DNA of 64,000 nt from an uncultured Clostridia bacterium (GCA_947628695.1 CANRAV010000007.1:19549-83548); one strand, 5' to 3'; positions 33,473-62,827 are shown, numbered from the stretch's first letter. Made by a program: numbers and translations. The notes: generated by a model from the letters alone, not told the origin.

Positions 33473-33486
33473 AAGGGGACAGTCTT

Positions 33487-34146: not shown

Positions 34147-34159
34147 GGAGGAGCAAAAG

Positions 34160-34921: not shown

Positions 34922-34932
34922 GGTAAGACGAC

Positions 34933-36657: not shown

Positions 36658-36659
36658 TC

Positions 36660-40700: not shown

Positions 40701-43700
40701 ACATATAAGCTGTGCCCGGAATTTAAGGAAACGTCCGACGGGAAGTATGTAGCCACAGTTAGCTTCGACGAAGACGCCGATTACACATTGACCGTCAAGT
40801 ACACGGATAGATCGGGCAATGAAGCGGTTATCGGCGAATATCAGGAGGAATTCACGGTTGATACGACCGCCCCGACTATCGAAGTATCTTTTGATAATAA
40901 CAAAGCAGCAAATGAAAAATATTTTGCTGCGGATCGGAAAGCAACAATTAAGGTAACAGAGCACAATTTTGACCCCGCTGCTTTTACCGCCGGTATCGTG
41001 TGCCCCGACTCTCCGACGACCGATTTTGATGCTTATCTGCAAAATACTTCAAGCTGGCATAGCGACGGCGATGTCTACACGGCGGTAATTACGTTTAAAG
41101 ACGACGGGCACTACACCTTCAATCCTTCCTGCCGCGACAAGGCCGGTAACGATAACACCGCGGTTGATTACGGAGAATCTGTTTCGACTGAGGAGTTTGT
41201 ATTGGATAAGGCTGCCCCGGATCAGGAAAGCCTTAAGATTTCCTATTCCGAATCGGTTTTGGATACCGTTTTGGAGACAATCTCCTTTGGATTCTATAAA
41301 GCCCCGGTAACCGTTACAATCGAAGCAGCGGATCAAACCTCCGGAATTGATTACTTTACTTATACCTATGCAGTAAGCGATGGCGTGAGCGCAAAGAATC
41401 AGGGAAAAGAGAGCGTGGTTATCGCACATTCCGAAATAATTACTTCCGGGAATTCCGCCAGTGCAACCTTCCAAATCCCCGCACAGTTCCGCGGCACTGT
41501 TTCTTTTGCCGCAACCGACATGGCAGGGAACAGCGGAGATAAGGCTGACAGTAAGGTCGTTGTCGTTGACGATATCGCACCCGGCATTACGGTGTCTTTT
41601 GACAACAACGATGTAAGAAACGGGAAATATTACGCCAAGGATAGGACCGCAACAATCACTATCGATGAAGCGAACTTCTTTGGCGATGCCGACAGAGAGT
41701 ACCTTGCAATCTCCGTGACCAAACGGCTTTTGAGCGGCTCGAAGTCGGAGACAACGACAAAGCTGTATCCCGAGTTTACCAAAAAAGGCGATACATACAC
41801 AGCTGAAATCGAGTTTAATGAGAATGCCGAGTATAAGCTTGAAATCGAGTATACAGACCGTTCCGGCAACGTCGGGACCGTTGCAGAGTATCAGAAGGAA
41901 TTCGTTATCAATAAGGAGTCTCCGAAGCTTTCGATCTCCTATGATAACATGTCTGTACAGAACGAAACCTATTACAGGGCGGACCGTGTTGCAACGGTTC
42001 AAATTGTAGAAAGCACATTCCGCGCAAGCGAAGTTGAGTTCACTATTTCCGCGACGGATGTGACGGGCAAGGCTGTCGATTTAAGCAGTAAGGCGTATGA
42101 GACCTATTTGAAGGATCAGAGCAGCTGGACAATGTCCGGGGATAATGTATGGACGGCTCAGATCACGCTGGATATCGAAGGCAGCTACGAGCTGAACCTC
42201 AAATATGAAAACCTCGCCGGAACGCCTCAGGAAAAGGAGGTAACCGATTCCTTCTGCATTGATAAGAGCAAGCCGGACAACCTTAAAATCTCCTACAAGC
42301 CGGATTTTGTCGGCGTACTGTTGGAGACCCTGACCTTCGGGTTCTACAAGGCGCCTGTGGAAGTAACACTTGAGGCCACAGACGGTTATGCCGGGGTGGA
42401 TTACTTTGTGTACTCCTATAAGGTTCAGGAGAACGCAAGCAAAAAGAATGCAGGGAAGACAGCTGTCAAGACGGTTGAAGGTCAGTTGTCCCGCAAAGGC
42501 AGCAAAGCTTCTGTGACATTTGATATTCCGTCGCAGTTCCGTGGATTTGTTTCCTTTGATGTGTTTGATAAATCGGGAAATAAAAACAGCTTAGCCGATG
42601 CAAATGCAGTTGTTGTCGACGATCTCCCGCCTCAAATTACCGTGACATACGACAACAACGATGCGTCCTACGAGAAATATTACAACAAAGACAGGGTCGC
42701 AACTATCACAGCCGAAGAGGCCAACTTCTTCTATGAGGATTTGACGAAGGACAACCTTTTGGTGATTACCGTCGATAAGACTACGGATGCAGGCGTGCAT
42801 ACCGCGGAAAAGGTAATGCCTGCATTTACCAAGAACGGCGATGTGTACACAGGCACCGTCGAGTTTAGGGAGAATGCCGATTACAAATTTACAATTGAAT
42901 ACACCGATCGTTCCGGCAACGCTGCGGTAATCAAGGAATACCAGACCGAATTTACCGTTGATAAAACAGCGCCGACGGTCAAAGTTACCTACGACAACAA
43001 CAGCAGCAAAAACGGCGATCAGTTTAAGGAAGACCGCACGGCAACCATTGTAATTACGGAACACAACTTCAAGCCTTCCGATATTGTCGCAAAAGTAACC
43101 GCTAACGGAACGGAAGTTACGGATTATGCTTCCTATCTGAAAAACGCCGACAGCTGGACGACCGATGGGGATGTCCACACGGCCAAGATTGAGTATACAG
43201 ACGAAGCGCACTATGAATTCAGCATTGGCTATTCCGACATGGCCGGTATAAAAAATGCGCCTGTTGACTATGCCGATTCGGCTGCACCGGAAAAATTCAC
43301 TCTTGACAAGAGCGCTCCGACACAATTGGAAATCACGATCGACGGCAAGTCTGTATTGGAAAGCAAAGGCATCGCGTTTGATACGTTCTACGACAAAGCG
43401 GTGACTGTGAAATTTGCCGCAAACTGTGATATCAGCGGATTGGAGTCCTTGAAGTACCAGAAGGTTCCTTCCGTATCCGAATACGATGTGAACGGTCAGT
43501 GGATTGATTATAACACCGAAACAGGTGTTGTTGTCACACCAAGCGAAAAGTTCATCATCTATTTCAGGGCGGAAGACAGAGCGGGAAACTTCACAATTGT
43601 CAACTCGACCGGTATCGTCGTCGACGATAAGATGCCGGAGGGTACCGGTGAAAAGAATGCGCCTGAGATTGACATTTTCCCGGCTGAACCGAATGCTAAC

Positions 43701-48105: not shown

Positions 48106-48360
48106 ATGGCAAAAGAAACGGCAATTGTTATATTTAATATTCTCAAGCGGAATGTTTCTGTGGATTTAGAAATCCCGTTAGATATTACTGCGAATGAGTT
48201 GGTTATCGCACTTAACACTGCATACAGACTGGGCATTGATACAAGTGACATAAAAAACTGCTATCTGAAAGCAGAAAATCCTATTATTTTACTCCGTGGA
48301 AACAAAACCTTGGCTGAGTTCGGGCTGAGAAACGGAAGCAGTATCAATTATACAGAATAG
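48106..48360 (+). CDS. yukD: YukD/EsaB-like ubiquitin-fold T7SS protein
   Basis: 84 aa with the pattern VDLEIPLDITANELVIAL ... LRGNKTLAEFGLRNGSSI, typical of YukD/EsaB. It lies immediately upstream of essC. Confidence 0.75.
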   Translation: MAKETAIVIFNILKRNVSVDLEIPLDITANELVIALNTAYRLGIDTSDIKNCYLKAENPIILLRGNKTLAEFGLRNGSSINYTE

Positions 48361-48370: not shown

Positions 48371-51300
48371 ATGGATAGCAGATATAAGATCATAGTTTCC
48401 AGTAATAATATTTATAAAGAAATTGAACTTTCTTCCGATGCTAAGGAAATAAAGCTTGGTACTAGCATGGATTGTGATGTTCGCCTTCGCAAATCTCTGT
48501 TTTTCGATCAAATTGAATTGATATTCTCTAAGTTGGATTCTGGTTGGTCCGTACTATGCTCGGATAACCTCTACCTTACGGTTGGCGATGTTCGGAAATT
48601 AATGACGAAAAATCTTGTCCACGGTGATTCACTGACTGTAAAGTATCAAAACTCTGATAATGAAGTATTCTCCTTTGATTTTTTAATTGACTTTGATAAC
48701 GGCCAAACAAAGTATGAAAGAATTATTGACCTTACTGGGATCAGCTCTTTCACAATTGGTTCTGCGAAAACATCAAATATTGAAATTAGCAGCGCATATG
48801 TTAATGGAGATGATATAGAAATCGCGCGAATAGACACATCTCTGTTGCTGCGCATAAGGCATTCGAACTATGGTGTTTATCATAACGGAAACAAGATTGA
48901 AGGTCAAATTGAGATCAAAAGCGGCGATTTCTTTTCAATTTCCGACTATTTCTTCTACTTCAAGAATGAATTTTTGTGGACTGAAATAAGGGATGATATG
49001 AGCGTCAATTCCCTAAATTATAAGGACATGCCAACGCCTCATGCCTATCCGATGTTTAGCCGTAACACCCGAATAAAAACTGTTGTTAATGATGAAAAAA
49101 TAGAAATTCTTGACCCCCCAGCTAAGCCACAAAAGCCAAAAAACAATATATTTATGAGGCTGCTTCCCTCGTTCGGCATGCTCATCGCGGCCGGAGTTAT
49201 GGCATTCTTTGGCGGCATGATGATCATTATGTCTGCAATTTCAGGCATAATGTCGATCTTTACCGCTATCATGAGCATTAGAGAGAGCAATAAAGACTAC
49301 AAGGAAAGTTCTGCCGAGAGAATCGAAAAATATAACGCATATGTATCGAAAAAAAGAGCAGAAATTCAAGCATATCGTGCACAAGAACACGAAGAGTTAG
49401 ATGAACTCTATATTCCCCAAGATGTGGAAAGAAGCCGTCTTGCAGCATTTTCACCGGATTTGTTTGATCGTTCTCCGGAAGATGAAGACTTTCTTTGCGT
49501 TCGTTTGGGAAGTGGTGATGTTGAGTCTAAAAGAGAAATCTCTTACAAAAAGCAGGAGAAACTCGATGTAGATGATGAATTGCAGCAAATCCCAGAGGAA
49601 ATTTGCAATGAATTCAAAAATGTGCATGGTGCGCCTATTGTGTGTGATTTCAAAGAAATCAGCGCAATGGGTATTGTTGGTGCGACCGGATTTAGATTTG
49701 AATTTCTTAAAAATATTGTCATTGACATTGCTGCAAGACAATTTTTCTCTGATGTAAAAATGGTCCTTGCAGCCAAAACTGAAAACAAAGATCAAATACA
49801 ATGGCTTAGACTTTTGCCTCATGTTTTTAACGATGATATTAAAGTTAGAAACATTGTATGTGACGACGAAAGCAAAAATTTAGTATTTGAGTATCTCTAT
49901 AAAGAGCTGACTATAAGAGAGCAGAACAAGACTTACGATGATAATATCGTCATCTTCTTCTACGATGAGTGTGGATTTAAGAGCCATCCGATTTCAAAGT
50001 TCATAAATAAAGCCAAAGATCTCGGAGTCACATTCGTCTTTTTTGGGGACAGCGCGGCAGACATCCCACAGGGTTGTGGTTATATTGTGTCAGTATCTGA
50101 TAATCAGAATGCGACTTTAATTAATACACAGAACAAAGGGCAATCTTCACCGTTTATCTATCAGACAATAAGCAATGAACAAGCAGAGAATATTGTTAAA
50201 CTCTTGGCACCGGTTTACACCGAAGAAATTTCGCTGGAAGGAACATTAACTAAGAACATTACCCTGTTTGAACTTCTCAATATTATCGCCGTTGATGACA
50301 TCGATCTACAATGCAGGTGGGCAACGTCTCAGGTTACTAAGTCCATGGCTGCACCACTCGGAGTCTCTAAGACAGGCGTGGTTTCATTGGATCTACATGA
50401 CAAGGCCCATGGCCCGCACGGACTTGTCGCGGGTACAACAGGCTCTGGCAAATCTGAGATTCTGCAGACATATATTCTTGCGATGTCGACCCTGTATCAT
50501 CCCTACGAAGTAGCATTTGTAATAATCGACTTTAAAGGCGGCGGAATGGTAAATCAGTTCAAGGAACTCCCGCATCTTCTTGGAGCGATTACCAATATCG
50601 ATGGCAAGGAAATAAGCCGCTCTCTTAAATCTATTAAGGCGGAATTGCAAAAGCGCCAGAGGCTATTTGCGGAAGTCGATGTAAACCATATAGATAAATA
50701 CATAGGCAAATTCAAATCCGGCGAAGCGAAAACCCCGTTGCCTCACTTAATCATTATTGTTGATGAGTTTGCAGAATTAAAGGCAGAGCAACCCGAATTT
50801 ATGAAGGAGCTTATTTCTGCGGCTCGAATTGGCCGTAGCTTGGGCGTTCATCTTATTCTTGCGACGCAGAAACCCTCTGGTCAGGTCAATGAACAGATTT
50901 GGAGCAACTCTCGGTTTAAGCTCTGCCTAAAGGTTCAGAGTCAAGAAGACAGCAATGAAGTAATCAAGTCTCCCCTGGCTGCAGAAATAAAAGAACCTGG
51001 ACGCGCGTATTTGCAGGTGGGCAACAATGAAATCTTCGAGCTATTCCAGTCTGCATATAGCGGAGCATCAGAAAAAGCAGATGATAGCAAAGTAAAAGAG
51101 TTTGCGATATATTCCTTGACGGATTCTGGCAGAAGAGTGCCCGTCTATGTTCAGAAGAAGCAGCAGACCGGCGATGGTAGTTCTACTCAGCTTGATGCGA
51201 TTGTGAGATATATTTCTTCTTACTGTGAGAAAAAACAGATTCAAAAACTTCCTAACATTTGCTTGCCCTCACTTAGCGATCGCATTGCTTTTCCCAATGC

Positions 51301-52882
51301 GGAACAGATAGAACAAACTTCGTTCAATATCATTGCAGAAATTGGTGTATATGATGACCCGGATAATCAGTATCAAGGTCAGTATACTGTCGATCTGACG
51401 AATCAAAATGTTATGATTATCGGTTCGTCTCAGTCCGGAAAAACGAATTTACTTCAAAACATCATCAGAAGTATTTCAACGAAGTACACTCCAAAGGAAG
51501 TCAACATCTACATAATTGACTTTGCATCAATGGTTCTTAAAACATATGAAAAGCTAAATCATGTAGGTGGCGTCGTAACATCCTCCGAGGACGAAAAACT
51601 GAAAAATCTCATAAAGTTACTCAAAACTGAGATTGAAACGAGGAAAGAAAGACTTCTTTCAGTCGGCGTAAGCTCGTTTGCCGCATACAGAGAAGCAGGG
51701 CGGGATGATCTTCCACAAATCGTTATATTAATTGATAACCTAACGGCATTAAAAGAATTGTATTTCCAGGATGATGATGAATTATTGAATTTGTGCCGTG
51801 AGGGATTAAGTGTCGGCATTAGCATAGTTATTGCTAACGCACAAACAGCAGGCATTGGATATAAGTATCTCTCCAATTTTTCATGCAGAATTGCAATGTT
51901 TTGTAACGATTCAGGAGAGTATAGTGCACTGTTTGATCATTGCAGTGAACGAATCGAAGACATCCACGGACGCTGCATTGTCGAAATTGATAAAGTTCAT
52001 TTGGACTGTCAAACGTATCTTGCCTTTGAAGGTGAAAAGGAAATCGATAGAGTCAAGGCGATTAAGGAGTATATAGCTAAAACAAATGCTAAAAACGCGA
52101 AAATGTTCGCTAATATCATTCCTGTTATTCCCGATACACTTACCCTCGATTTTGTGGCAAACACATATACCCCATATATGCAGGCCAAGCATTCAATTGC
52201 TATCGGCTTAGACTATGGTTCTGTAAGCCCGTGCATCCTCGATTTGTCCGCGATTGGCGTACTTGCTATATCCGGAAGAGAAGGCTCCGGGAAAAATAAC
52301 ATTGTTAAATACATCACCTGCCTTTTGGATCAGGTGCATCCGGAAACTTCTGAGGTATATATTGTCGATGGGGTCGGACGCAAGCTCGCGGCTCTTAAAG
52401 GAAAATCAAATGTTGTTTCTTACGATATTCTCCCAGATAAAGGTATTGAGTACATAAAATCTATCGAGCAAAAATTGCAAAGGAGATATTCTGCCCTTGC
52501 AGAAGGCGACGAGAAAATACTTGAAAATTCAAAGCTTATTCTTCTTGTCCTCAATAGTGGAGATGCTGTAGAAGCAATTTCTAATGATCCTGTTGCTCTC
52601 AATGCGTACAAAAACATCACAGGTAAATATAAGAACATGAATGTTTGTATTCTGCTGGGTGGCTTTGAAAATGCGAATATCCCATATTCAGCCCCCGAAA
52701 TCGTCAAAAAAGTGCGTGATTCAAAGCACTTCTTGTTCTTTGATGATCTGTCTAATATGAAGATCATAGATATGCCGCTTTCAGTTATGAGAAACTACAA
52801 GAAGCCAATTGAAATCGGTGACTGCTACTATATTCGTGATAACGAATGCCAGAAGGTAAAGACGCCTTTGTGTGTACTGTAA
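48371..52882 (+). CDS. essC: Type VII secretion FtsK/SpoIIIE-family ATPase EssC
   Basis: 1,503 aa with two N-terminal FHA-like domains and two TM helices (about aa 265-310). It has three P-loop domains (GTTGSGKSE, GSSQSGKTN, GREGSGKNN). Confidence 0.92.
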   Translation: MDSRYKIIVSSNNIYKEIELSSDAKEIKLGTSMDCDVRLRKSLFFDQIELIFSKLDSGWSVLCSDNLYLTVGDVRKLMTKNLVHGDSLTVKYQNSDNEVFSFDFLIDFDNGQTKYERIIDLTGISSFTIGSAKTSNIEISSAYVNGDDIEIARIDTSLLLRIRHSNYGVYHNGNKIEGQIEIKSGDFFSISDYFFYFKNEFLWTEIRDDMSVNSLNYKDMPTPHAYPMFSRNTRIKTVVNDEKIEILDPPAKPQKPKNNIFMRLLPSFGMLIAAGVMAFFGGMMIIMSAISGIMSIFTAIMSIRESNKDYKESSAERIEKYNAYVSKKRAEIQAYRAQEHEELDELYIPQDVERSRLAAFSPDLFDRSPEDEDFLCVRLGSGDVESKREISYKKQEKLDVDDELQQIPEEICNEFKNVHGAPIVCDFKEISAMGIVGATGFRFEFLKNIVIDIAARQFFSDVKMVLAAKTENKDQIQWLRLLPHVFNDDIKVRNIVCDDESKNLVFEYLYKELTIREQNKTYDDNIVIFFYDECGFKSHPISKFINKAKDLGVTFVFFGDSAADIPQGCGYIVSVSDNQNATLINTQNKGQSSPFIYQTISNEQAENIVKLLAPVYTEEISLEGTLTKNITLFELLNIIAVDDIDLQCRWATSQVTKSMAAPLGVSKTGVVSLDLHDKAHGPHGLVAGTTGSGKSEILQTYILAMSTLYHPYEVAFVIIDFKGGGMVNQFKELPHLLGAITNIDGKEISRSLKSIKAELQKRQRLFAEVDVNHIDKYIGKFKSGEAKTPLPHLIIIVDEFAELKAEQPEFMKELISAARIGRSLGVHLILATQKPSGQVNEQIWSNSRFKLCLKVQSQEDSNEVIKSPLAAEIKEPGRAYLQVGNNEIFELFQSAYSGASEKADDSKVKEFAIYSLTDSGRRVPVYVQKKQQTGDGSSTQLDAIVRYISSYCEKKQIQKLPNICLPSLSDRIAFPNAEQIEQTSFNIIAEIGVYDDPDNQYQGQYTVDLTNQNVMIIGSSQSGKTNLLQNIIRSISTKYTPKEVNIYIIDFASMVLKTYEKLNHVGGVVTSSEDEKLKNLIKLLKTEIETRKERLLSVGVSSFAAYREAGRDDLPQIVILIDNLTALKELYFQDDDELLNLCREGLSVGISIVIANAQTAGIGYKYLSNFSCRIAMFCNDSGEYSALFDHCSERIEDIHGRCIVEIDKVHLDCQTYLAFEGEKEIDRVKAIKEYIAKTNAKNAKMFANIIPVIPDTLTLDFVANTYTPYMQAKHSIAIGLDYGSVSPCILDLSAIGVLAISGREGSGKNNIVKYITCLLDQVHPETSEVYIVDGVGRKLAALKGKSNVVSYDILPDKGIEYIKSIEQKLQRRYSALAEGDEKILENSKLILLVLNSGDAVEAISNDPVALNAYKNITGKYKNMNVCILLGGFENANIPYSAPEIVKKVRDSKHFLFFDDLSNMKIIDMPLSVMRNYKKPIEIGDCYYIRDNECQKVKTPLCVL

Positions 52883-52941: not shown

Positions 52942-53364
52942 ATGCTAAAAACAGAGATAGAAAGTGAAATTAGCAGGCTGCAAAAACAGCTGCAGGGCTA
53001 TCGTTCAAAAAAGAAAAAGGCTGAAAGTGAACAGCAAGAGATGGACACAGTCATATCCAAAATACGGCAGAAAACCGCGGAAATCGAAGGCGGTTTGCAA
53101 GAGACCCTCAAAACTATTGAAATACGCCTTAGCAAGTTAAACCCTAAAAGCAAGTTCAAAGTCAAATATTTGGAAAAAGTAAAGGGGTTCCTTCAAAACT
53201 CCAGTTCATCTTCTGCGGTGGAGAACACTCGTGAAGCAGAAAGAAAAGCAAAGAAAAAACATCTTGAGTTAGAGGATACAATTTCTGGCTACAACAGCAA
53301 AATCCGCAGTTTGGAACAAGAAATTGAAAAGCTAAATAATCAGCTCAAGCAGCTGGGAGTGTAA
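52942..53364 (+). CDS. ~140-aa coiled-coil protein (YwqH/DUF5082-like LXG accessory protein)
   Basis: It is an all-helical heptad-rich sequence. Its position and size match the first gene of ywqH-ywqI-ywqJ-type LXG operons. Confidence 0.55.
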   Translation: MLKTEIESEISRLQKQLQGYRSKKKKAESEQQEMDTVISKIRQKTAEIEGGLQETLKTIEIRLSKLNPKSKFKVKYLEKVKGFLQNSSSSSAVENTREAERKAKKKHLELEDTISGYNSKIRSLEQEIEKLNNQLKQLGV

Positions 53365-53369
53365 TCGAT

Positions 53370-53663
53370 ATGGCTAGTAAAGAAATTCAAATAACAGAAT
53401 ATGAATTAGAGAATTGTAATGGCAATCTTACAAAGCTCTCCTCCATCTGGACTTTGACTCCACAGGTTTCTTCGTGCATGGTAGCAAAAAGCAAAGGAAA
53501 ATCAGCTGATGGTATAAAAGACAGCCTTGACTTAACAAAACAACTGTCAAAATCCTTACAAGCCCTCTTGGATAATTCTATAAGCTTTTTCGCATCCATG
53601 GGAATTGCTTTTCAAGAATCGGATGAGGCTGCGGCACAACATATTGATACCATAACAAAGTAA
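53370..53663 (+). CDS. Small helical T7SS targeting factor (Lap1 / TIGR04197-like)
   Basis: 97 aa and helical, with a C-terminal FQESD (FxxxD) motif. It lies immediately upstream of the LXG gene. Confidence 0.55.
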   Translation: MASKEIQITEYELENCNGNLTKLSSIWTLTPQVSSCMVAKSKGKSADGIKDSLDLTKQLSKSLQALLDNSISFFASMGIAFQESDEAAAQHIDTITK

Positions 53664-53687
53664 CCAAACTACGGAGGTAAACTAAAA

Positions 53688-55556
53688 TTGTACGGATATA
53701 ATTTGATTGTGGATGATGACGAGTTGAATTTAGCTGGAAAGTGTTTTAAGTCTTTTTCCGACACTTTGGAATCAGTTTTTGATCAGTATAAGCTAATCTT
53801 AGACAATGTCAGTACAAACGCGGTTCCCTACGGCGAGGTTCATGACGCGCTCGTCCTTTATTCTGATTATGTTGTCAAGGTTCAAAAAATATCAGATCAG
53901 ATTGGAGACAAATTTTCTAAACTGATAAGCAATTTTATTTCCGAAATTGAGAATGCAGATGACTACCTATACGACACAGGCATCTCAAACATGACGAGGG
54001 ATTTTTCTGATGATGAGTATGAGCACCTTCGTAGTTGTTTAAAAGACCCATGGTGTTCGCTTACAGATTCCATCGGCGATTGGTTTTATAGCAAAGCAAT
54101 TAAAATCGTTGAATTCTTCAAATGGGATAGCGTTAAAGCGTATTTACAAAGCTGTCATCGTCTTTTACTTGATTATAACGATGAAATTGCTCAGGGTCTG
54201 AAAATTCTCTTTGAGTGTGTATACGCTGTAGACAAAAAGTATGGCACCAGCATCGCAGGTGGAGTCAGTAACGACGATAACTATACAGGCCATTTTGCGT
54301 ATGTTGTACTTACGTTGTGCGATTTGAGAAATATGCTCGACGAAATGACATTCATAATAGATCCCATCAACGGTTCATTTACTGCGAAGGTTATTGAGGC
54401 GCGTTTGGGAAACGCATATAAGGAACTCCTTAAAGATTTTGAGAATGCAATTGCAATCCCAGAAGTTGGATCAAAACCGACAATAGAAGAAATCTCTAAT
54501 TTTGCTTCGCAGCCTTGGGGCAATCTATATTTTAGTAATTTTTTCCAAGCTTCCACTAAGTTTGTTTATGATATGGGTGGGTGGGAAGCCTTTCAGATGA
54601 TCGTTTTCAATATGTTCGATATTTCTAAAACCGTCTTATTCGAAGAAAGTAACTATGAGGACTATTTGGCTAAAAAACAGTTGCTTTCTGTCTTGGAAGA
54701 CATGACGAATGAATACAAGTATTCGGAAAGCGACGAGCAGGAAGCCGTTGACGATTGCAAGACATTTCTTAAATATGTGAAGAAATTTGGAAAGAAAATA
54801 TACAAGTACATGAACGAGCATACGCTTGATAACGGAAAGCTTATTCTTGATGGGAGAACGATTAATGCACGTCAATATAGAGAGTTTCTTGAAAGTTTGG
54901 GTGGTGCTGAAACGATATTGAAGTGCGGTGATGATTCTATTGAGTATATTAGCAGGTTGTTTACTGACTATTCTAAAGGTCTGGAAATACTGGATTCTTT
55001 TGAAAATAACTACACAGGCAATGAAAAAATTTTGAGTAGCGTCAGCAATGTCAGAAGGCTATATAACAAAGAATTTTGTGCCTTGGTTGAAGAAGGCCTA
55101 AAGATAGTTATTGATAATGGATTGGATGTTGCTTTGAAAAAATTGGGCGATGCTGTCCCGGTCATTGGTGTAGTTAATGCAATTGATGAGGGACTTGGGA
55201 CAGTTGGAAAAATAACCGGATTAGGTAGCGATGCAAAAAGTATGATTGATGCGCTTGCATACTTCAATCTTCAAACTTCAAGTGAAACAGCATATAAGAA
55301 TGCTTTGGAGAAGGTTCAAAATGCCGATCCGAGCAGCGAGGGCTATGATGCTTTAGTTGAGGATCTTAATAATTGCTTTGAATTGAATAAAAAGAATACG
55401 ATCGAAATGTTTAAAGCGATGGCAACGGCTTCAAACGGCACGAAAAAAGCGTATTATAAGTATTGCGCAAAGCAGGCCGAAAACCTTACCATGAGAGATA
55501 CCGCTTGTCCAGATATTCTCTCTTATGACGAGTTTGTTGCCTTGGAGACCGCATAA
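53688..55556 (+). CDS. LXG-domain T7SS effector with an uncharacterised helical C-terminal region
   Basis: TTG start lies 9 nt after GGAGGT. The N-terminal helical domain has an L-A-G (LxG) motif at ELNLAGK. It is 622 aa and no known toxin domain was recognised. Confidence 0.65.
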   Translation: MYGYNLIVDDDELNLAGKCFKSFSDTLESVFDQYKLILDNVSTNAVPYGEVHDALVLYSDYVVKVQKISDQIGDKFSKLISNFISEIENADDYLYDTGISNMTRDFSDDEYEHLRSCLKDPWCSLTDSIGDWFYSKAIKIVEFFKWDSVKAYLQSCHRLLLDYNDEIAQGLKILFECVYAVDKKYGTSIAGGVSNDDNYTGHFAYVVLTLCDLRNMLDEMTFIIDPINGSFTAKVIEARLGNAYKELLKDFENAIAIPEVGSKPTIEEISNFASQPWGNLYFSNFFQASTKFVYDMGGWEAFQMIVFNMFDISKTVLFEESNYEDYLAKKQLLSVLEDMTNEYKYSESDEQEAVDDCKTFLKYVKKFGKKIYKYMNEHTLDNGKLILDGRTINARQYREFLESLGGAETILKCGDDSIEYISRLFTDYSKGLEILDSFENNYTGNEKILSSVSNVRRLYNKEFCALVEEGLKIVIDNGLDVALKKLGDAVPVIGVVNAIDEGLGTVGKITGLGSDAKSMIDALAYFNLQTSSETAYKNALEKVQNADPSSEGYDALVEDLNNCFELNKKNTIEMFKAMATASNGTKKAYYKYCAKQAENLTMRDTACPDILSYDEFVALETA

Positions 55557-55602
55557 AATCGAAAAGAAAGGAAACTGAAAATGAATACAATGAGTCCAGT
55601 TC

Positions 55603-56145
55603 TTGTTGCTGTTAAAGGAGCTTGCTGAAACATGTCCAGAGGTATTAGATTACCTGTTTTCAGATTATTCAAAAGGGTTAGAAATCCTTGATAATATCTC
55701 CGAGATATGTGATCGTTCTGGAAGTTCCGAGATAAGTTCAGCAATTGAAAAACTCCGTTTGGATTATAACAATAAATGGAGTGGTCTACTAAGAAAAAAC
55801 GGAGACTTTGGTGCCGATATGATATCTAAGCTGAGCGAGTAAGGCATTAAAGAATGGATCAAAGACAAAATTGGAGATACATCTGTTTTGATGAGCATAC
55901 TGGATATTGCAGGCATGGAAGCAAAGGTTGATGCAAGCCATAAACTTATTGCATTAAGAAAAGTAGCTGATGAACTGCAGGATGCATACGAGGATGTTAT
56001 CGAAAAGATCAGATCAGGCAACTACACAGAGGCAGATATCAACAGTGCAGAAAATCTGTTTAACATGTTGAAGGAGACTACAAAATCTGTGTATAAGACT
56101 TACAGAGATATGTGTGACGATCTCACGAAAAAATTGGATAAATGA
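55603..56145 (+). pseudogene. 5'-truncated orphan copy of the C-terminal part of the LXG effector, with an in-frame TAA at 55840-55842
   Basis: LFSDYSKGLEILDN aligns with LFTDYSKGLEILDS of the full-length gene. ORFs 55603-55842 and 55888-56145 are in the same frame, separated by one TAA. Confidence 0.6.
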
Positions 56146-56244
56146 TCAAATCGAAAACCTTGAGCAAATGACGATGAGAAGTTATAGCCCATATATATGA
56201 GGCTTATCTAGGATATTAAAATAGCAGAACGGAGGGTGATTTAT

Positions 56245-56697
56245 ATGAGCGTCACTTCTTTAGAAAGTCAAGTGCGATCATATGAGCAGAAAATAACTAC
56301 TGCTGAGTCGCAAATAAGAAAATGTGAGAGGAATTATGAGTCGCTACGGACATTCAAGGGTGTAGTCGAACGGTCCCAAGAAGACTTCAGTTCCGTAAAC
56401 AGAAAAAAACAAGGTATTTTGGCGGAGGTTGATGCTGTAAAAAAGGACAGCCTTACAGCACAAAGATATTCCGCAGGCATGAGTAAGGTGCTTAGCGGTA
56501 TCGGCTCCAAAATTGTAGCAATCGCCTATGCAGGATTTCTGTATCTCATCAAAAATAAGTTAAACAGCTATGTGAATGCTGTTTCTTCCTATGAAAATCA
56601 GATAGCGAACTATAACCGAAACATAACTAACCTGAACAAGCAAATTGAAACCGAAAAGGCGGAAGAACTTGCAAAGGCGGAAGGAGGACAAGCATGA
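56245..56697 (+). CDS. Coiled-coil protein, counterpart of 52942-53364 for a second effector module
   Basis: GGAGGG RBS (56231-36) lies 8 nt before ATG 56245. It has helical heptads and a central hydrophobic segment (IVAIAYAGFLYLI). Confidence 0.55.
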   Translation: MSVTSLESQVRSYEQKITTAESQIRKCERNYESLRTFKGVVERSQEDFSSVNRKKQGILAEVDAVKKDSLTAQRYSAGMSKVLSGIGSKIVAIAYAGFLYLIKNKLNSYVNAVSSYENQIANYNRNITNLNKQIETEKAEELAKAEGGQA

Positions 56698-57026
56698 CTA
56701 AAGATATTATTTATAATGAGAATGAGCTGTCAATTGCGGCAAACAGCATCGTTACTTATGCTGACTTCCTTACACGCTGCATAGCCGACTATACTTCTAT
56801 TCTGAAAGATATTCAGGCCAAAGGAATAAAAGACAACATGATTACATCTAAGCTTTCAGAGTTAACATCCTCTTTGGCACCGTATGCAACTGCCATCTAC
56901 GACGATGGAAAAGAAATATCATCTAATGTCAACAAGAGTATTTCGGATGTGGCTACGGCGGATAATTTCCAATTCCCTGGTGATGTTACATCGACAATTG
57001 CTTCTTTGCTCGCCAAATTCTTATAA
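56694..57026 (+). CDS. Stand-alone LXG-like N-terminal domain protein (110 aa)
   Basis: It aligns with the first ~95 aa of the LXG effector (NELSIAA vs DELNLAG; DYTSILKDI vs QYKLILDNV; VATADNFQF vs IENADDYLY). Its ATG overlaps the previous stop. Confidence 0.5.
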   Translation: MTKDIIYNENELSIAANSIVTYADFLTRCIADYTSILKDIQAKGIKDNMITSKLSELTSSLAPYATAIYDDGKEISSNVNKSISDVATADNFQFPGDVTSTIASLLAKFL

Positions 57027-57038
57027 GGAGGGATTGCT

Positions 57039-57323
57039 TTGTCTACTCAAATTACTGTTGATCTAAAAGAACTACAGCTTGCAGAAAGCAGGTTGTCAAC
57101 GCTACAGAAAAGTACAGCGAATAGAAAACTGACAATTAATATATCTCAATCAAGGGGCTCGGTTGCCGACGAACTTCGTAATGCCGCAACTCAATTAAAT
57201 GAAATTGGTGTGCAACTTGCGTTACTTATAAATAAGACAGAAACCGCTGTGAAAAATGCCTGGGTTTCCTTCGAGAATGCGGATAGCGAATTGGCTAAGC
57301 ATTTTGACATTACGGAGGAGTAA
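57039..57323 (+). CDS. Small helical T7SS targeting factor (Lap1 / TIGR04197-like), second copy
   Basis: 94 aa and helical, with a C-terminal FENAD (FxxxD) motif. It is paralogous in layout to 53370-53663. Confidence 0.55.
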   Translation: MSTQITVDLKELQLAESRLSTLQKSTANRKLTINISQSRGSVADELRNAATQLNEIGVQLALLINKTETAVKNAWVSFENADSELAKHFDITEE

Positions 57324-57325
57324 AA

Positions 57326-58123
57326 ATGAAGAAGAATCGTCAAAGGCTACTTTTACTTATTCTTACGATAATCATCACGATAGGAGTGTGTGGATGCGAT
57401 ATGAATAATAACTCTACCGCCAGAAATGAATCCGGAAACAACACAAGCAATGTGTCAGAAAATGTCGAACTAAACAACAGGCAGCTACAAATTCTTGAAG
57501 CCCAGGGATTGCCTCAAAATTTCAGGGAACTTTCGTCTTCTCAAAAGAAAGCAATCGTATCTATTGAGGAATTGTTATCGAGTGCCGAATCGAAATATGG
57601 CATGGATTTTTGTTATGCTGGCTATGTTGAAGCAAGTACCTTGGAATCTGAAAAAGTAATTGCGTACCCTGCTGGCGGAACCGAGTCTACTGACAGTTTT
57701 TTAATTTTAAGATCCTCAGATGGTACCATCACCGATGAATATATGAATGTCGCTTTAAGGGGAGAATATTCTGAACTGATTTTGATGCTTGCAAAAGATG
57801 CTTTATCTTCTGAAAATACAAAAGTCTTTGTAGAGGTTACAAATACAGCATTGACCTCTATTCCAGATGATATTGATCAGCTTGTTGGCAATGTTGAAGG
57901 AACTTCTGTGATCTTTGTTGACGGATCCGACGTTTCAGAAGAGCAGTTTGAATTTTTTGTTTCTTCTATTAAGCAAGCCCTTGAGGAAAAACAACTGTAC
58001 GGCACAGCGCAAATCATTCTTTTGAATGCAGATACCATTAAGTATTTAACTCAATATAATTACACTGATTATCTTGATCCTGAGTGCTATACAGACAGAG
58101 AAAGTATAAGTATAAAGAAATAA
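57326..58123 (+). CDS. Lipoprotein, candidate immunity protein for the adjacent lipase
   Basis: Its signal peptide ends in a lipobox (IGVCGC). It lies immediately upstream of the lipase-like effector. Confidence 0.6.
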   Translation: MKKNRQRLLLLILTIIITIGVCGCDMNNNSTARNESGNNTSNVSENVELNNRQLQILEAQGLPQNFRELSSSQKKAIVSIEELLSSAESKYGMDFCYAGYVEASTLESEKVIAYPAGGTESTDSFLILRSSDGTITDEYMNVALRGEYSELILMLAKDALSSENTKVFVEVTNTALTSIPDDIDQLVGNVEGTSVIFVDGSDVSEEQFEFFVSSIKQALEEKQLYGTAQIILLNADTIKYLTQYNYTDYLDPECYTDRESISIKK

Positions 58124-58150
58124 CATCCATTTAAGAAAGGGGCGAACTGC

Positions 58151-59854
58151 ATGACTTTAACCGATAATGAATTATGTATGATCGAGCAACTATGCTACTT
58201 AAATAAAGATGTGGCCGAGGCCGCAGGAATTAGCGGCTTCACTGGTGTTAAAGCTGAAGCCGGTCATAAGGGTATGTCCATTGCTGAGATATTAGAGCCG
58301 TTTGATGAGAACGCTTTGAACAAACTTGAAGCACTTGGGGATAAAGAATTGGATGGAGCTTGTGCCAGCGGTAAAGAATGGGCAGAGATTATTCGCTATT
58401 TGAAGTCCAGCGAACGAATTAGTAGTCTGGCACTATCCGAGACAATGGTGAATTCAAATGGAACCACACTGGCTCTTTGTTTTACTGAATCGGCAAATTC
58501 AGATAGTGCTATCGTCGCTTTCAAGGGAACGTCAGGCGGTGATGAGTGGATTGATAATGTTGAGGGGTTGAACACCTCTGATACACAATGTCAAAAAGAA
58601 GCTTTAGATTTCATTGAGAGCCTGAGATTCTCAGATATAACAGTAACTGGTCACTCAAAGGGCGGCAACAAGGCTATGTATGTTGCCATAACCTCTGACA
58701 AGGTTACTCGTTGCGTAGCCTATGATGGGTAAGGATTCTCGCAGCAGTTCATCGATAAATACTGGGCGGAAATTCAAGCACGCGGCAATAACATTACAAA
58801 CTACTCCCTCTCTACCGATTATGTGCATGCGCTTATGTTTCCTGTTCCTAATTCAAATCAGGTGTACTGCAAAGGGTATGGCGTAGATAATATCAAACAA
58901 CACCATAGTCCAGATTCCTTTTTTGTAACAGATGAAAACGGAAACTTAATCCTAGACGAGAACGGAAATCCCATTGTGATTTCAATCTCCGAAGATGAGT
59001 CCATTATGATGCTCCACGATTTCACCACCTTTGTTATAAATAATGCAGATGAAAATGACAAGGTAATCATTGTTGACTATGTATCGCAGCTTTTAGCAAT
59101 GGCTTTTGGCGGCGGAGACATGTCAACTGACGAGATGATTGATTTCCTTCTTTCAGATCCGGAAACACTCGCACTAATAGTCGCTTACTTGATTAAATAC
59201 ATGGAGGTTAGTGATCTATCAGCGGAGGATATTGATAAATTACTTAAAACATTAGGCTTGGATTCTTTGGATGAGATGTTTACGGTTAATGTCAAGGGAG
59301 TTGATATTGTCGGTTTATCTTGCCTGCTAGACTATATAAAAAAACAGTTAACAGACAATGATGATGACTGGATCATCGCAAATGTATTGTTACCTCTTCT
59401 GAAAAAATGGAAATTCGATGATCTTGACATTGATATTACTGATTTCTGGAATAAGGTTAATAGCAAAGTTAAGAAAATAAACACCTCTGGAGGAACTTCA
59501 AATGCAAAAGCAAAAACAGGTTCTATTAGAGATTTCTCACTAACTGTTTACAATGCTCTTATGGGTGCAATCAGGAAAATTGAGAATATGTCCTTTTCTT
59601 CGGTATCATCGTGGGCAAGTTATTCATCAGAGGAGTGGTACTCTTCTCTATTTGTGTCAACAGCTATAAAAGGTTTTTCCGCCTATTTTAATAAGTTGAC
59701 TCAGACAAACTCCAAATGTAAGACCAAAATTGAGACGATATTTTCTAATGTATCCCAGGCGGATACAAACGGTGGAAACAGGATAAAGCAGACTACATCT
59801 GCGCTTCAAACGTTAAAGGTAAACTTGAATGATTGTGCCAATGGCATTGGCTAA
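58151..59854 (+). pseudogene. Alpha/beta-hydrolase (DUF2974/Mbeg1-like lipase) effector with a C-terminal helical domain, interrupted by an in-frame TAA at 58730-58732
   Basis: It has a nucleophile-elbow motif (GHSKGGNKA). ORFs 58151-58732 and 58823-59854 share one frame, and the sequence reads YDG-stop-GFSQQF through a single TAA. The C-terminal ~300 aa are helical. Confidence 0.65.
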
Positions 59855-59913: not shown

Positions 59914-60206
59914 ATGGCAAACTAAATCAAAATCACTCCGGATCGGATGCACGAGAGAGCAAACCAGTATCGCACAGAGTCAGACACTGTTAACGGTGTT
60001 ATCGGTAAAATGTACTCATCGCTTCATCAGCTGAAGGGCAAATGTGAAGTCTTAGCGAGCAAATCCTAAGCGATCTGCTATTAGGAACTGAAATCCGGCT
60101 TCATGAACGCTGAAAAAACGTCTGTAAAATCGCAGCTGCTTTTGACTTTATTGTAAAGAGTGTTAAGGGTACCGATCTCAATATAGTGAACCGGTTCATA
60201 GGTTAA
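59914..60206 (+). pseudogene. Decayed tandem copy of esxA (WXG100)
   Basis: It aligns codon-for-codon with 60266-60559. It carries at least 5 stop codons, one 1-nt deletion, a lost RBS and WEG changed to CE. Confidence 0.8.
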
Positions 60207-60265
60207 TTGAAGTATATATTCGGTTCATCCGATTATATAAAAAATTCGGAAAGGAGGACATATCA

Positions 60266-60559
60266 ATGGCAAATCAGATTAGAATTACCCCGGACCAGAT
60301 GCGTGAGAGAGCAAATCAGTATCGCGCCGAGGCAGACACCGTAAACGGCGTAATCGGCAAGATGGACTCACTGCTTCAGCAACTGCAGGGCGAATGGGAA
60401 GGCTCCGCGAGCGAATCATATGCGGCTCGCTATCAGGAACTGAAGCCCGGATTCATGAAAGCTGAAGAACTAATCCGCGAAATTGCAGCTGCTCTTGACT
60501 CTACTGCGAAGATCGTTGAGGAGACTGATACCGACATCGCCAATCAGTTCAGGGGCTAA
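60266..60559 (+). CDS. esxA: WXG100 family type VII secretion substrate EsxA
   Basis: 97 aa with a strong RBS (AAAGGAGG). It has a W-E-G motif in GEWEGSASESY and the helix-turn-helix layout of ESAT-6-like proteins. Confidence 0.9.
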   Translation: MANQIRITPDQMRERANQYRAEADTVNGVIGKMDSLLQQLQGEWEGSASESYAARYQELKPGFMKAEELIREIAAALDSTAKIVEETDTDIANQFRG

Positions 60560-60844
60560 CAGCTTCTTTGTCTAACGACCCCTTGACAGGAGTTGAGGGG
60601 CCGTTAGTTCAAAGGCAAATGTTTTTACTTGAAAATGAACTGGACTTTTACAAAGGTGATCATATGACAGAGCAATAATTATCGATTTTGCCTACATAGG
60701 TGTGCTGATGGGTGATATAGAAGACCTTAGCAAGTATGTAGAAATGATTTTAATACACAAAGTATATATGCGCGTAAGTTTACCGACAAGCAAGTTATGG
60801 ATGAGATAAGGGTAAAGTAAAACAACAGAAAATGAGTGTGGATT

Positions 60845-62827
60845 ATGAATAGAAGTGATTTGGTGGCGGCATTTCAGGACTCGGTTGCCTTTTCAGAATC
60901 TGATATTTTGAGAGAGAAAACGGCACAGGCGGCTGCATCATCAAAAGTATATTTGGAGGGCTTTCAGGCACACAGCCATCCCGAAGGTCACAAGGCAGCA
61001 ATTACGGTCGAAGAGGACACGACCTTTTCAGCTGCAAGGAGACACTTCTCAGCGGGGCAAACTGCTGTGCTGAATTTTGCGAATCCCGTAACGCCGGGAG
61101 GCGGAGCGCAGAACGGTGCTATGGCTCAGGAAGAATGCCTTTGCCGCAGCAGCAACCTTTATGTTTGCTTGACATCCTCGCCTTTTTTGGACTACTATCA
61201 ATACAACCGCTCGCTGCATAATCACTTTTATTCCGACCGTATTATTTACACCAAAGGGGTTACGGTATTCAAAACCGATGACGAAATCCCGGTACTGCTG
61301 CCTGAACAGGACCGGTTTCAGGTTGATGTAATCACCTGTGCTGCGCCGTATATTGCAGGGGAAAAATATACCAATAAAACTGTGTTGAAATCCATTTTCA
61401 AAAGCAGGATCAAAAACATTTTTGAAGTAGCTGCGGAAAATGGCATTACAACGCTGATTCTCGGCGCGTTCGGGTGCGGTGCTTTTAAAAACCCGCCGGA
61501 GTTGGTCGCTTCCGCTTTTCAAGAAGTGATTGCGGAAAATAAATACGAGAAACAGTTTGATCAAATTGTGTTTGCAATCAAGAAATCGGAAGACAATGCG
61601 AATTACCGTGCATTTTTTAATACATTCTGCATGCTGATAGAGAACTGCCCTTGCTACATTTTGCATGAAATTCCACTGCCAAGCGGTAACAGCATTGCAG
61701 GGACAAGTGTACGTTTCGATTGTGCTCCTATCAACACCGCGTTGGATACTGTGAAAAAATGGGTTGCCGAGGGGATAGGATATCCGGCGGGACAATCTGC
61801 ATCTCATGTGACACCCGATGAGAAAGAAAATTATTTGCGGTACGCCTCGTTCTTAAAATGGCAACTTCAAAATCCGTTTTACAAGAAACAGTTTTCCGTT
61901 CTCGGCGACTCAATAAGCACGCTGGATGGATATAACCCCAAAGGATACAATCTGTTCTATACCGGAGATACCTGCAACAGAACAAAAGTCCGCGATATGC
62001 AGGACACCTGGTGGGGCAAGGTCATCGACTTTTTCGGCGGTGAGCTGCTGGTCAACAACTCATGGTCGGGCAGCCGCGTTACAAAACTGCCGAACCGGGA
62101 TACGCTTTTCCCTTCCGGATGCAGTGATGAACGGACCGGCGGACTTCATATCGGAGGAGTTATGCCGGATGTCATTATCGTTTATCTCGGAACGAACGAC
62201 TGGGCATACGGTGTGAAGGCCGATGATGGCGGTATCCGGCGGGAGTATTATCAAGACGAGAAAACAGGATTGATGTATGAACGCTATCCGTGCGAGGACG
62301 TTTCGATTTTTTCGTTCGCATACGAGCGGATGCTGAATAAAATCAAACAAAACTATCCGAACGCCGAGGTTTTCTGCTGCACGCTGAATGAAACCTATAT
62401 GTCCTCGAATCCGTCATTCTCTTTTCCGCATTCTTATGCAGGGACACATATTGAACGGTTTAATGAGGTGATTCGCAAAAAGGTAGAGTCGGCCGGTTAC
62501 AAGCTGATTGAACTGTACAACAACCACGTTCCATACGATACGGTGGACGGCACTCATCCTACGGCGGCCGGTATGGATACTCTTGCAACGCTTGTGCTGC
62601 GCGGGATGTGCGATAGCGAGGGCGCAACTTTCCTCGACTGCGAGGGAGAACACGAATACACTAGCGATTTTGTGAAAGTCTGCCGCAAATGCGCACTCAA
62701 ACAGGACTGCAGTTTTACTCCGCCTTTAGTTAAAGCTGTTAACAAGCCGTCAATAAAGATTCAAGACGACGCTCAAAATCAACCACCGAAAAAGGGATTC
62801 TTTTCACGCATATTGAAAAAGAAATAA
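60845..62827 (+). CDS. Fusion protein: TIGR02452/PARG-like macrodomain (N) plus SGNH/GDSL hydrolase (C)
   Basis: - The N-terminal part has VLNFANPVTPGGG...AQEECLCRSSNLY...LGAFGCGAFKNPP.
- The C-terminal part has SGNH blocks: VLGDSIS (I), NNSWSGSRV (II), LGTNDW (III) and DGTHPT (V). Confidence 0.75.
   Translation: MNRSDLVAAFQDSVAFSESDILREKTAQAAASSKVYLEGFQAHSHPEGHKAAITVEEDTTFSAARRHFSAGQTAVLNFANPVTPGGGAQNGAMAQEECLCRSSNLYVCLTSSPFLDYYQYNRSLHNHFYSDRIIYTKGVTVFKTDDEIPVLLPEQDRFQVDVITCAAPYIAGEKYTNKTVLKSIFKSRIKNIFEVAAENGITTLILGAFGCGAFKNPPELVASAFQEVIAENKYEKQFDQIVFAIKKSEDNANYRAFFNTFCMLIENCPCYILHEIPLPSGNSIAGTSVRFDCAPINTALDTVKKWVAEGIGYPAGQSASHVTPDEKENYLRYASFLKWQLQNPFYKKQFSVLGDSISTLDGYNPKGYNLFYTGDTCNRTKVRDMQDTWWGKVIDFFGGELLVNNSWSGSRVTKLPNRDTLFPSGCSDERTGGLHIGGVMPDVIIVYLGTNDWAYGVKADDGGIRREYYQDEKTGLMYERYPCEDVSIFSFAYERMLNKIKQNYPNAEVFCCTLNETYMSSNPSFSFPHSYAGTHIERFNEVIRKKVESAGYKLIELYNNHVPYDTVDGTHPTAAGMDTLATLVLRGMCDSEGATFLDCEGEHEYTSDFVKVCRKCALKQDCSFTPPLVKAVNKPSIKIQDDAQNQPPKKGFFSRILKKK

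Follow-up and report, generated by a model that had tools for sequence, protein, structure and literature searches.

A putative T7SSf effector cassette with a reverse-topology lipase gene interrupted by a recent nonsense mutation in an uncultured Clostridia bacterium

Here we describe a gene cassette in a stretch of 64,000 nucleotides (nt) from an uncultured Clostridia bacterium (GCA_947628695.1, CANRAV010000007.1:19549-83548), which as a whole is referred to as the window and from whose first nucleotide all positions are counted. Five tightly packed, co-directional open reading frames (ORFs) on the plus strand (56245-59854) encode a coiled-coil protein of 150 residues, a free-standing protein of 110 residues, a 94-residue protein carrying the sequence FENAD, a lipoprotein and an alpha/beta-hydrolase, in the very order given by a preliminary description that had been made from the DNA sequence alone. 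It is likely, in our judgement, that these genes constitute an effector cassette of a type VII secretion system (T7SS) belonging to the T7SSf type, for a lipase or phospholipase toxin of reversed topology, and that this toxin was recently killed by the change of one CAA codon to TAA.

The preliminary description had recognized an Mbeg1-like hydrolase with a GHSKGGN nucleophile elbow at the N-terminus of the last protein, hereafter called the lipase. Indeed, the Pfam family Mbeg1-like (PF11187, DUF2974) was matched above its cut-off of 21.1 bits, with 28.8 bits by the N-terminal 193 residues and with 35.6 bits by the protein repaired with Gln at the stop codon, and a match to PF26363 (Phospholipase-like) is precomputed for the 193-residue product and for homologues. 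GHSKGGN occupies residues 167-173, and S169, D192, D223 and H252 are invariant in the family alignment (92 sequences), with S169, D223 and H252 as a putative triad in the order Ser-Asp-His. For the Gln-repaired lipase, the number of full-length homologues (549-595 residues) exceeds 300. A model of its 71% identical orthologue P0001, computed with AlphaFold2 (AF2) from 91 sequences, reached a predicted local distance difference test score (pLDDT) of 88.8 and a predicted template modelling score (pTM) of 0.84. In the numbering of P0001, residues up to ~255 form an alpha/beta domain and residues ~279-438 a helical region, followed by a hairpin of two helices (460-476 and 498-563) with a Trp-rich turn in between. 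In a Foldseek search with this model, the best matches of the N-terminal domain were class-3 lipases (an M37 lipase and the Rhizomucor and Gibberella lipases) and an Enterobacter type VI secretion system (T6SS) lipase effector; in the PDB, a sequence search with the family profile returned generic esterases alone and no T7SS protein, and a fold search with the P0001 model returned no T7SS lipase. The helical middle domain (residues 276-440, mostly at pLDDT 70-90 in the P0001 model) accompanies the hydrolase in 29 relatives without the C-terminal tail and therefore belongs to the enzyme and not to the export signal. Thus, the earlier claim that ~300 C-terminal residues are helical holds for the P0001 model, but the targeting module comprises the last ~115 residues only. 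Separately, residues 120-191 (window 58151-58729) gave a weak match to the NCBIfam entry 'SA1320 family protein' (E 4.5e-6, 25 bits at a cut-off of 230), a hint that the hydrolase domain has remote relatives in staphylococci.

One-frame translation of the lipase gene (58151-59854) confirmed a sole interruption, the TAA codon at 58730-58732, in the context AYDG-stop-GFSQ. Comparison of orthologues at this residue, as suggested beforehand, revealed Gln in all aligned homologues (25/25, then 91/91) within an invariant motif D-G-Q-G-F-S. The nearest intact orthologue, at locus L082, was located through the lipoprotein gene and not by a lipase search; it has 567 residues, is 86% identical and aligns free of gaps over residues 1-567 (tblastn). 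Its codon at the stop site is CAA and hence the lesion corresponds to exactly one C-to-T transition, as had been proposed. Both halves of the lipase match one protein family without gaps, i.e. they are parts of one gene and not two genes. By correspondence to the model of P0001, the stop maps just past a core beta-strand. It follows the catalytic Ser and precedes the remainder of the expected triad, namely the invariant residues D223 and H252, in line with the earlier placement, and also the entire export tail. The product ending at residue 193 would thus keep Ser169 and lack Asp223, His252 and the tail, and should yield neither an active nor an exportable toxin.

The part of the gene beyond the stop is well preserved. 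Relative to L082, the 1,119 nt located 3' of the TAA contain no further stop and no indel. Pairwise ratios of non-synonymous to synonymous substitution rates (dN/dS) against L082 were 0.040 before and 0.083 after the stop, with values of 0.047 for residues 195-300, 0.098 for residues 301-440 and 0.097 for residues 441-567. Low dN/dS past the stop and the lack of any further lesion, unlike in the decayed esxA copy that follows downstream, indicate that the inactivation is recent, in accordance with the fresh event envisaged in the preliminary description. Judged from these comparisons and from the assemblies considered below, the loss of the lipase gene is a real, single-step and recent nonsense mutation.

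The reversed domain order, with the hydrolase N-terminal and a helical tail at the other end, was borne out by the homology of this tail to N-terminal domains of forward effectors. The family alignment was divided into three profiles covering the hydrolase, the middle domain and the tail. The tail profile matched the N-termini (residues ~1-115) of six otherwise unrelated effectors with E-values of 1e-13 to 1e-15, and other effectors with such an N-terminus are also preceded by a trio of small genes. A reciprocal iterative search from one of these N-termini recovered 49 lipase C-termini, 14 N-termini and five internal sites. The tail-type domains, designated RDFS hairpins, have the motifs R-D-F-S, W..Y..E.W, Y....N and F....D in common. 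Within the window, the RDFS profile matched residues 100-195 of an effector encoded upstream at 53688 (E 1e-16 to 2e-16), whose residues 100-193 are one of the five internal sites. Residues 5-99 of this effector were recognized by the profile of the 110-residue family (designated LXGL; 32 members) with 46 bits and E 2e-15. An alignment of the 110-residue protein to this N-terminus had been claimed before; it was not significant in a pairwise BLASTP search (E 2.5), but the family profile upheld it. The N-terminal ~195 residues of the 53688 effector therefore correspond to the 110-residue protein and the lipase tail, fused in this order. An intermediate form is present at L082, where genes for a coiled-coil protein, a free LXGL protein of 94 residues and a Lap protein are followed by an effector with an N-terminal RDFS hairpin. 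These homologies indicate that an LXG-like targeting domain has been split, with the 110-residue half predicted to act in trans and the other half fused to the C-terminus of the lipase. The term LXG-like denotes an analogy of architecture and not membership of a family, since no piece reaches the Pfam LXG family.

A search of 1.84 billion representative proteins with the tail profile gave 160 matches, the best 150 of which were classified. The RDFS hairpin was C-terminal in 79 of these, N-terminal in 28, internal at residue ~100 in 19 and otherwise placed in nine, and the remaining 15 matches were short proteins. RDFS lies downstream of lipase-family domains in 66 of 131 newly returned representatives (52 with the full lipase layout, nine middle-domain fragments and five with hydrolase plus tail); the rest include 43 with RDFS alone, N-terminal or stand-alone, and 17 LXGL-RDFS fusions. 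In the sampled proteins, the reversed, i.e. C-terminal, attachment is confined to lipases. On balance, we lean towards the view that the T7SS targeting domain is modular and can be split, that the hairpin of the 110-residue protein may be either free-standing or fused, that the RDFS hairpin can be attached to either end of the cargo, in reverse for lipases only, and that the present proteins form a third independent family of reverse lipases. A further constellation was seen at four loci of Ruminococcus metagenome-assembled genomes (L057, L059, L060, L033), in which the RDFS hairpin is a free-standing protein of 123-126 residues encoded directly before a tail-less lipase (e.g. at 9582-9959 of L060); here both halves of the signal would be supplied in trans, which would add a fourth arrangement.

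Small helical partners of the lipase had also been postulated, and their genes indeed co-occur with the tail: genes of the 110-residue family and of the family of the 94-residue protein (LXGL and LAP, respectively) were found upstream of 31 of 33 tail-bearing lipases compared to 1 of 22 lipases without the tail (Fisher 6e-12, without phylogenetic correction). The 110-residue protein has no Pfam or NCBIfam match; Y33, D90 and F92 are conserved in its family. The 94-residue protein had been called Lap1-like on account of an FxxxD motif, which serves as export arm and is required for secretion of LXG toxins (PMC10801868). Its FENAD is embedded in VSFENADSEL close to the C-terminus. The pattern F-x-x-x-D/E is present in 30 of 32 family members (F78 in 30/32, D/E82 in 32/32, Gly40 of the turn in 32/32), and in this functional sense the designation stands. 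By family it does not, as neither DUF3130 nor DUF5344 was reached: the protein itself matched neither in Pfam, and its 97-residue homologue encoded at 53370 (BLASTP E 2e-5; profile E 2e-10) hit DUF5344 below threshold (E 0.049, 14.6 bits at a cut-off of 27). The family profile matched EsxA weakly, and the 94-residue protein is faintly WXG100-like. The gene of the 150-residue coiled-coil protein heads the cassette in 32 loci; by profile, this protein matched a 140-residue paralogue encoded at 52942 (E 5e-12) and, below the cut-off, YwqH-like/DUF5082 (E 0.005). Compared to L082, dN/dS was 0.115 for the 150-residue and 0.057 for the 110-residue protein. Neither Pfam nor NCBIfam gave more than sub-threshold coiled-coil noise and weak YwqH-like/DUF5344 hints for any of the small proteins, for the tail or for the lipoprotein.

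The lipoprotein gene, which had been described as intact beside the broken toxin gene, is a full ORF for 265 residues directly upstream of the lipase gene. The signal sequence ends in TIGVCG-C24, and the lipobox residues G23-C24 are at least 90% conserved in the family. An AF2 model (pLDDT 85) displays an N-terminal signal helix, a disordered tether (residues 17-42) and a compact alpha/beta domain; the best and only notable match of the lipoprotein in the PDB was an uncharacterised DUF5037 protein of Ruminococcus gnavus (4gl6; E 5e-5, TM ~0.34). DUF576, DUF1433 or any other Pfam family was not matched at E<=0.1. A lipoprotein gene lies directly upstream of the hydrolase gene in 31 of 33 tail-bearing and in 9 of 22 tail-less relatives, among the latter proteins of 2,307 residues. 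As it accompanies tail-less hydrolases as well, the lipoprotein follows the toxin domain and not the secretion signal. An array of five lipoprotein paralogues is present at locus L009, and dN/dS of the lipoprotein against L082 (0.205) is the highest in the cassette. The lipoprotein thus bears the usual signatures of an immunity gene, which provides circumstantial evidence for a putative role in immunity. At two loci, L041 (822-7745) and L050 (9992-16915), hydrolase and middle domain form the N-terminus of the aforementioned 2,307-residue proteins, with a homologous lipoprotein encoded upstream and no T7SS partners; the putative toxin-lipoprotein pair is therefore reused in other delivery contexts.

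A survey of 185,579 species genomes, one per species, identified 532 loci encoding lipase relatives, and in the best 79 of them ORFs were called and classified by iterative profiles. Besides the window, 31 of these 79 loci, each from a different species, have the genes for the coiled-coil, 110-residue and 94-residue proteins, the lipoprotein and the lipase in this order, and the cassette is usually located directly between essC and esxA. The order at L082 is DUF6382-FHA, AAA_31, YukD, EssC, cassette, esxA, esxA. The window departs from this locus in two respects: an insertion with a second effector module (52942-56200) separates essC from the cassette, and the first esxA copy is decayed. Genes of the secretion machine in the window encode YukD (48106-48357), EssC (48371), EsxA (60266), a PP2C phosphatase (34052), two DUF6382-FHA proteins (46104 and 32348) and an AAA_31 protein (47040). 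The T7SSf set has been described to consist of a WXG100 protein (TsfA), a YukD-like protein (TsfB), an EssC-like ATPase (TsfC), a PPM phosphatase (TsfF), a DUF6382-FHA protein (TsfJ) and a TadZ-like AAA ATPase (TsfV) (Garrett & Palmer 2024, PMC11217815). By its predicted gene content, the machine at the locus matches the T7SSf and not the T7SSb subtype. Reverse lipases have been reported at T7SSe and T7SSg loci and not at T7SSf loci (PMC11217815).

Alternatively, the lipase might not serve to kill other bacteria at all. Secretion of an enzyme directed at host or nutrient lipids is conceivable, as is an accessory role in the T7SSf, with the lipoprotein acting as anchor or chaperone, and the stop codon would then reflect the loss of a dispensable function. 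We regard this as unlikely. A place between essC and esxA, which the cassette occupies in many species, would suit a core component, but the core T7SS genes are intact here although the lipase gene is broken. A DUF2974 protein, Mbeg1, was linked to induction of NF-kB in a host-cell screen (PMC6867899), whereas DUF2974 also recurs as cargo in predicted antibacterial effectors of the T6SS and of the type IV secretion system (T4SS) (PMC11854122, PMC6536674). The failure of the lipoprotein to match a known immunity fold would fit a role other than that of a toxin system; however, hydrolase and lipoprotein occur without T7SS tail and partners, also in the 2,307-residue proteins, which is the behavior of polymorphic toxins, and the lipoprotein array at L009 as well as fragmentary lipase genes beside lipoprotein genes (L063, L068, L018) are reminiscent of Tsl loci (PMC13560087).

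Several points nonetheless weigh against a reverse lipase toxin inactivated by mutation. The search of the PDB with the lipoprotein model retrieved no known immunity fold. Foldseek matches of the P0001 model to lipases were weak (E 1e-4 to 1e-2, TM 0.2-0.4), and DUF2974/Mbeg1 proteins have no demonstrated biochemical activity (PMC6867899). Pfam LXG (PF04740) was matched neither by the 53688 protein, the 110-residue protein and the tail, nor by ten fused or N-terminal representatives. The loci underlying the co-occurrence of tail and partners are not phylogenetically independent. Finally, the two stop-bearing contigs that were fetched are 100% identical to the window, and the copies may all represent one strain, with which a mutation private to this strain would be compatible.

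A single base separates the lipase gene from an intact one and everything past the stop is perfectly preserved, as would also be the case if the TAA stemmed from faulty sequencing or assembly, or from a minority variant, in a strain that really possesses an intact CAA gene. However, the 193-residue product is called on six public contigs. Two of these, which differ in assembly and source, were fetched (ENA ERZ27249283; Logan ERR10663729) and match the window at 100% identity for 15.8 kb and 9.4 kb, respectively; the Logan contig is present in three samples. The identical truncated product on six contigs makes a random assembly error very unlikely. Moreover, the stop site is not part of a homopolymer or repeat, and overall we give very little credence to an artifact. 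An exact-pattern scan of JGI (Joint Genome Institute) metagenomes around the stop gave no match, and an intact allele of the same strain was not returned by a word-index protein search, which also missed the 86% identical orthologue at L082. It is scarcely credible that the mutated gene still functions through readthrough, suppression or two cooperating polypeptides (193 residues plus a restart product). The downstream frame is open for 373 codons, with an in-frame GTG at 58823, an ATG at 58835 and a called product of 339 residues, but TAA is the regular stop of the neighboring genes, and a tRNA scan of the window detected no tRNA gene of any kind and hence no suppressor tRNA. A restarted product would be devoid of residues 194-227 and thus of the invariant D223, and no Shine-Dalgarno sequence is visible for it. 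Mapped onto the P0001 model, the break interrupts the core of the hydrolase between beta-strands.

For a toxin cassette with a truly interrupted lipase gene, we infer a mechanism that comprises the formation of a complex, the secretion, enzymatic activity and toxicity of the lipase, and immunity through the lipoprotein. The intact lipase would consist of an N-terminal class-3-lipase-like hydrolase, the helical middle domain and a C-terminal hairpin of ~115 residues. This hairpin would represent the second half of the LXG-like targeting domain, the first half of which would be supplied in trans by the 110-residue protein, while the FxxxD hairpin of the 94-residue protein, as export arm, and the 150-residue coiled-coil protein would complete a helical bundle. 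EssC/TsfC could recognize this bundle and export the lipase irrespective of the end that carries the cargo. Outside of the cell, the lipase is expected to attack membrane phospholipids, and the surface-tethered lipoprotein would block it and thereby protect the producer and its kin. In the strain studied here, the 193-residue product would mean that the toxin is switched off, with the lipoprotein and the three partners intact.

As such, the nonsense mutation is ordinary, i.e. another case of toxin loss with retention of immunity, but it is clean and datable. Splitting of an LXG-like domain is suggested as a simple evolutionary route to reversal. An open question raised in the literature is whether a lipase has to stand N-terminal of the signal, and whether reversal is possible for other toxins (PMC13560087). 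The present family occurs widely in Clostridia of gut and rumen (532 loci in species-representative genomes) and is found in a different T7SS subtype, T7SSf. As its tail is homologous to the N-terminal signal of forward effectors, matched forward and reverse substrates of one machine would be available. If true, this would provide a side-by-side system to address why only phospholipases hang N-terminal of the signal. In the window, the effector at 53688 (forward, fused) could naturally be compared with the lipase at 58151 (reverse, split), and L082 adds a forward effector of the split kind.

Table 1. Features of the lipase cassette and of associated genes in the window.
Feature	Position	Strand	Remarks
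Coiled-coil partner, 150 aa, Lap2/Lap4-like	56245..56697	+	ORF; stop overlaps next start (ATGA)
Free-standing 110-aa protein (LXGL)	56694..57026	+	ORF; putative equivalent of the first helical hairpin in the LXG-like domain of the 53688 effector
WXG100-like helical hairpin partner, 94 aa	57039..57323	+	Export-arm motif FENAD, residues 78-82, nt 57270-57284
Intact lipoprotein, 265 aa, putative immunity protein	57326..58123	+	Start MKKNRQRLLLLILTIIITIGVCGC; lipobox Cys24 at nt 57395-57397
Lipase pseudogene, 567 codons, single in-frame TAA, terminal TAA TAA	58151..59857	+	One-frame translation
Class-3-lipase-like alpha/beta-hydrolase domain, aa 1-262	58151..58936	+	Mbeg1-like; Ser169 58655-58657, Asp223 58817-58819, His252 58904-58906
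Premature TAA in place of invariant Gln194, motif D-G-Q-G-F-S	58730..58732	+	Alignment of homologues
Helical middle domain, aa 276-440	58976..59470	+	Seen in tail-less relatives; modelled as helical in orthologue P0001 (AF2)
C-terminal targeting tail (RDFS hairpin), aa 453-564	59507..59842	+	IRDFS, turn with invariant W488 and W496, ~65-residue helix
Forward-oriented neighboring effector, 622 aa	53688..55556	+	LXGL-like part (aa 5-99) joined to an RDFS-like part (aa 100-195)
EssC/TsfC ATPase of the T7SSf-type machine	48371..52882	+	FtsK_SpoIIIE domains; 1503 aa, as in L082 EssC (87% identical)

In a scan for promoters and terminators, signals were at chance level. Directly after the lipase gene and upstream of an intact esxA gene (60266-60559), a pseudogene of esxA, which codes for a WXG100 protein, is found at 59914-60207. 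Its 294 nt contain one frameshift and three in-frame stops, a fourth stop, TAA, coincides in position with the normal stop codon, and the WxG motif is destroyed. The pseudogene is ~74% identical to the intact copy at the nt level, and 30 of its 41 lineage-specific changes are GC-to-AT; at the same place L082 has two intact tandem esxA genes. Recoding or deaminase mutagenesis was considered for the two CAA/CAG-to-TAA changes in the lipase gene and the esxA copy and was rejected, as the esxA copy carries other stops and a frameshift and an ordinary AT-biased spectrum.

Two short ORFs of 79 and 85 codons are present at 55603-56145, between the 53688 effector gene and the lipase cassette. The first of them duplicates residues 419-469 of this effector (38% identity, E 1e-8) and resembles the orphaned or displaced C-terminal fragments known from polymorphic-toxin loci. 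No obvious immunity gene for the 622-residue effector was identified. Upstream of the T7SS genes (32348-37160), the second DUF6382-FHA protein is encoded together with a zinc-ribbon protein, the PP2C phosphatase (34052-34921) and a Ser/Thr kinase (34933-36657); according to the published description of T7SSf, no kinase was found associated with this subtype (PMC11217815). The region immediately upstream of the T7SSf core (37728-45968) encodes a protein of 2,746 residues with bacterial Ig-like (Big) domains, the counterpart of which at L082 exceeds 2,044 residues and occupies the same position; it may be a conserved surface component. Directly downstream of esxA (60836-62827), a 663-residue protein is encoded in which a domain similar to microbial poly(ADP-ribose) glycohydrolase is joined to a GDSL lipase/esterase domain (precomputed Pfam matches PF10021 and PF13472). 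The GC content between ~47000 and 60200 is 37-44%, mostly 37-42%, compared to 45-50% in the flanks and 52% in the intact esxA at the boundary, which suggests a mosaic or horizontally exchanged island. A gene for a phage-type integrase is located at 30886-32124.

Two reverse T7SS phospholipases have been characterised, TslA (Tsl1) and TslM (Tsl2), both with extracytoplasmic immunity proteins (PMC10730906, PMC13560087). In the literature, we found no paper that connects Mbeg1/DUF2974 with type VII secretion, and members of the present family bear the public names 'Mbeg1-like' or 'DUF2974 domain-containing protein' only. A tblastn search of plasmids and phages gave one weak phage match only and did not reach any staphylococcal Tsl sequence. 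The preliminary description had compared the cassette with the TslA system, which consists of TslA, TlaA1, TlaA2 and TilA and belongs to the T7SSb of S. aureus (Garrett et al. 2023, PMC10730906). The concept holds with respect to the N-terminal lipase, the C-terminal helical targeting domain, small helical partners binding this domain (shown for TslA, predicted here), an immunity lipoprotein encoded immediately upstream (shown for TilA, predicted here) and a toxin without Sec signal. However, judged by its hydrolase family and accessory genes, the cassette is not a member of the Tsl1 family. The hydrolase is Mbeg1-like (DUF2974 and PF26363), whereas TslA was modelled on a Yarrowia Lip2-type lipase. 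Three partners are encoded upstream, one of them a free-standing half of an LXG-like domain, in contrast to two partners downstream of TslA (Tla1, Tla2), and only esxA copies follow downstream here. The lipoprotein does not belong to DUF576 as Til1 does, its nearest fold being DUF5037, and the machine is of the T7SSf type in Clostridia.

The three-part layout is almost superimposable on that of TslM of the TslM/TlaM/TilM system of S. aureus (Higginson et al. 2026, PMC13560087), i.e. residues 1-268, 268-384 and 384-536 for lipase, middle region and tail of TslM compare with residues 1-262, 276-440 and 453-564 here, and both systems exhibit strain-specific toxin loss with immunity retained. In contrast to the present cassette with its three partners, TslM has one WXG100 partner, and TilM is a membrane-anchored DUF1433 protein that is divergently encoded, whereas the lipoprotein gene described here is co-directional and of another family. 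The middle region of TslM is predicted to be unstructured, whereas that of the present lipases is modelled as a folded helical domain, which is also present in tail-less relatives.

Similar to the LXG-Lap complexes TelA-LapA3-LapA4 and TelC-Lap1-Lap2 (Klein et al. 2022, 2024; PMC10801868), the partner genes lie upstream of the effector gene and a rod-like helical module would be formed by a helical domain of the effector and two small proteins, one of which has an export arm with FxxxD or NKxxDD. Unlike in these complexes, the targeting domain appears to be split into two polypeptides, the second half being attached C-terminally to the cargo, none of the pieces attains the Pfam thresholds for LXG, DUF3130, DUF3958, DUF5082 or DUF5344, and the conserved turn is Trp-rich (W488, W496) instead of L-x-G. 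Lipase effectors of T6SS and T4SS (E. cloacae, PDB 9cys/7ubz; X-Tfes of Xanthomonadales) share the alpha/beta-hydrolase toxin fold, delivery through a contact-dependent or specialised secretion system and extracytoplasmic immunity, predicted here (PMC6536674, PMC11854122), but employ VgrG/PAAR/Rhs or XVIPCD signals and not helical T7SS bundles. Taken together, the lipases described here probably represent a third, hitherto undescribed family of reverse lipases, set apart from TslA and TslM by the features described for these two.

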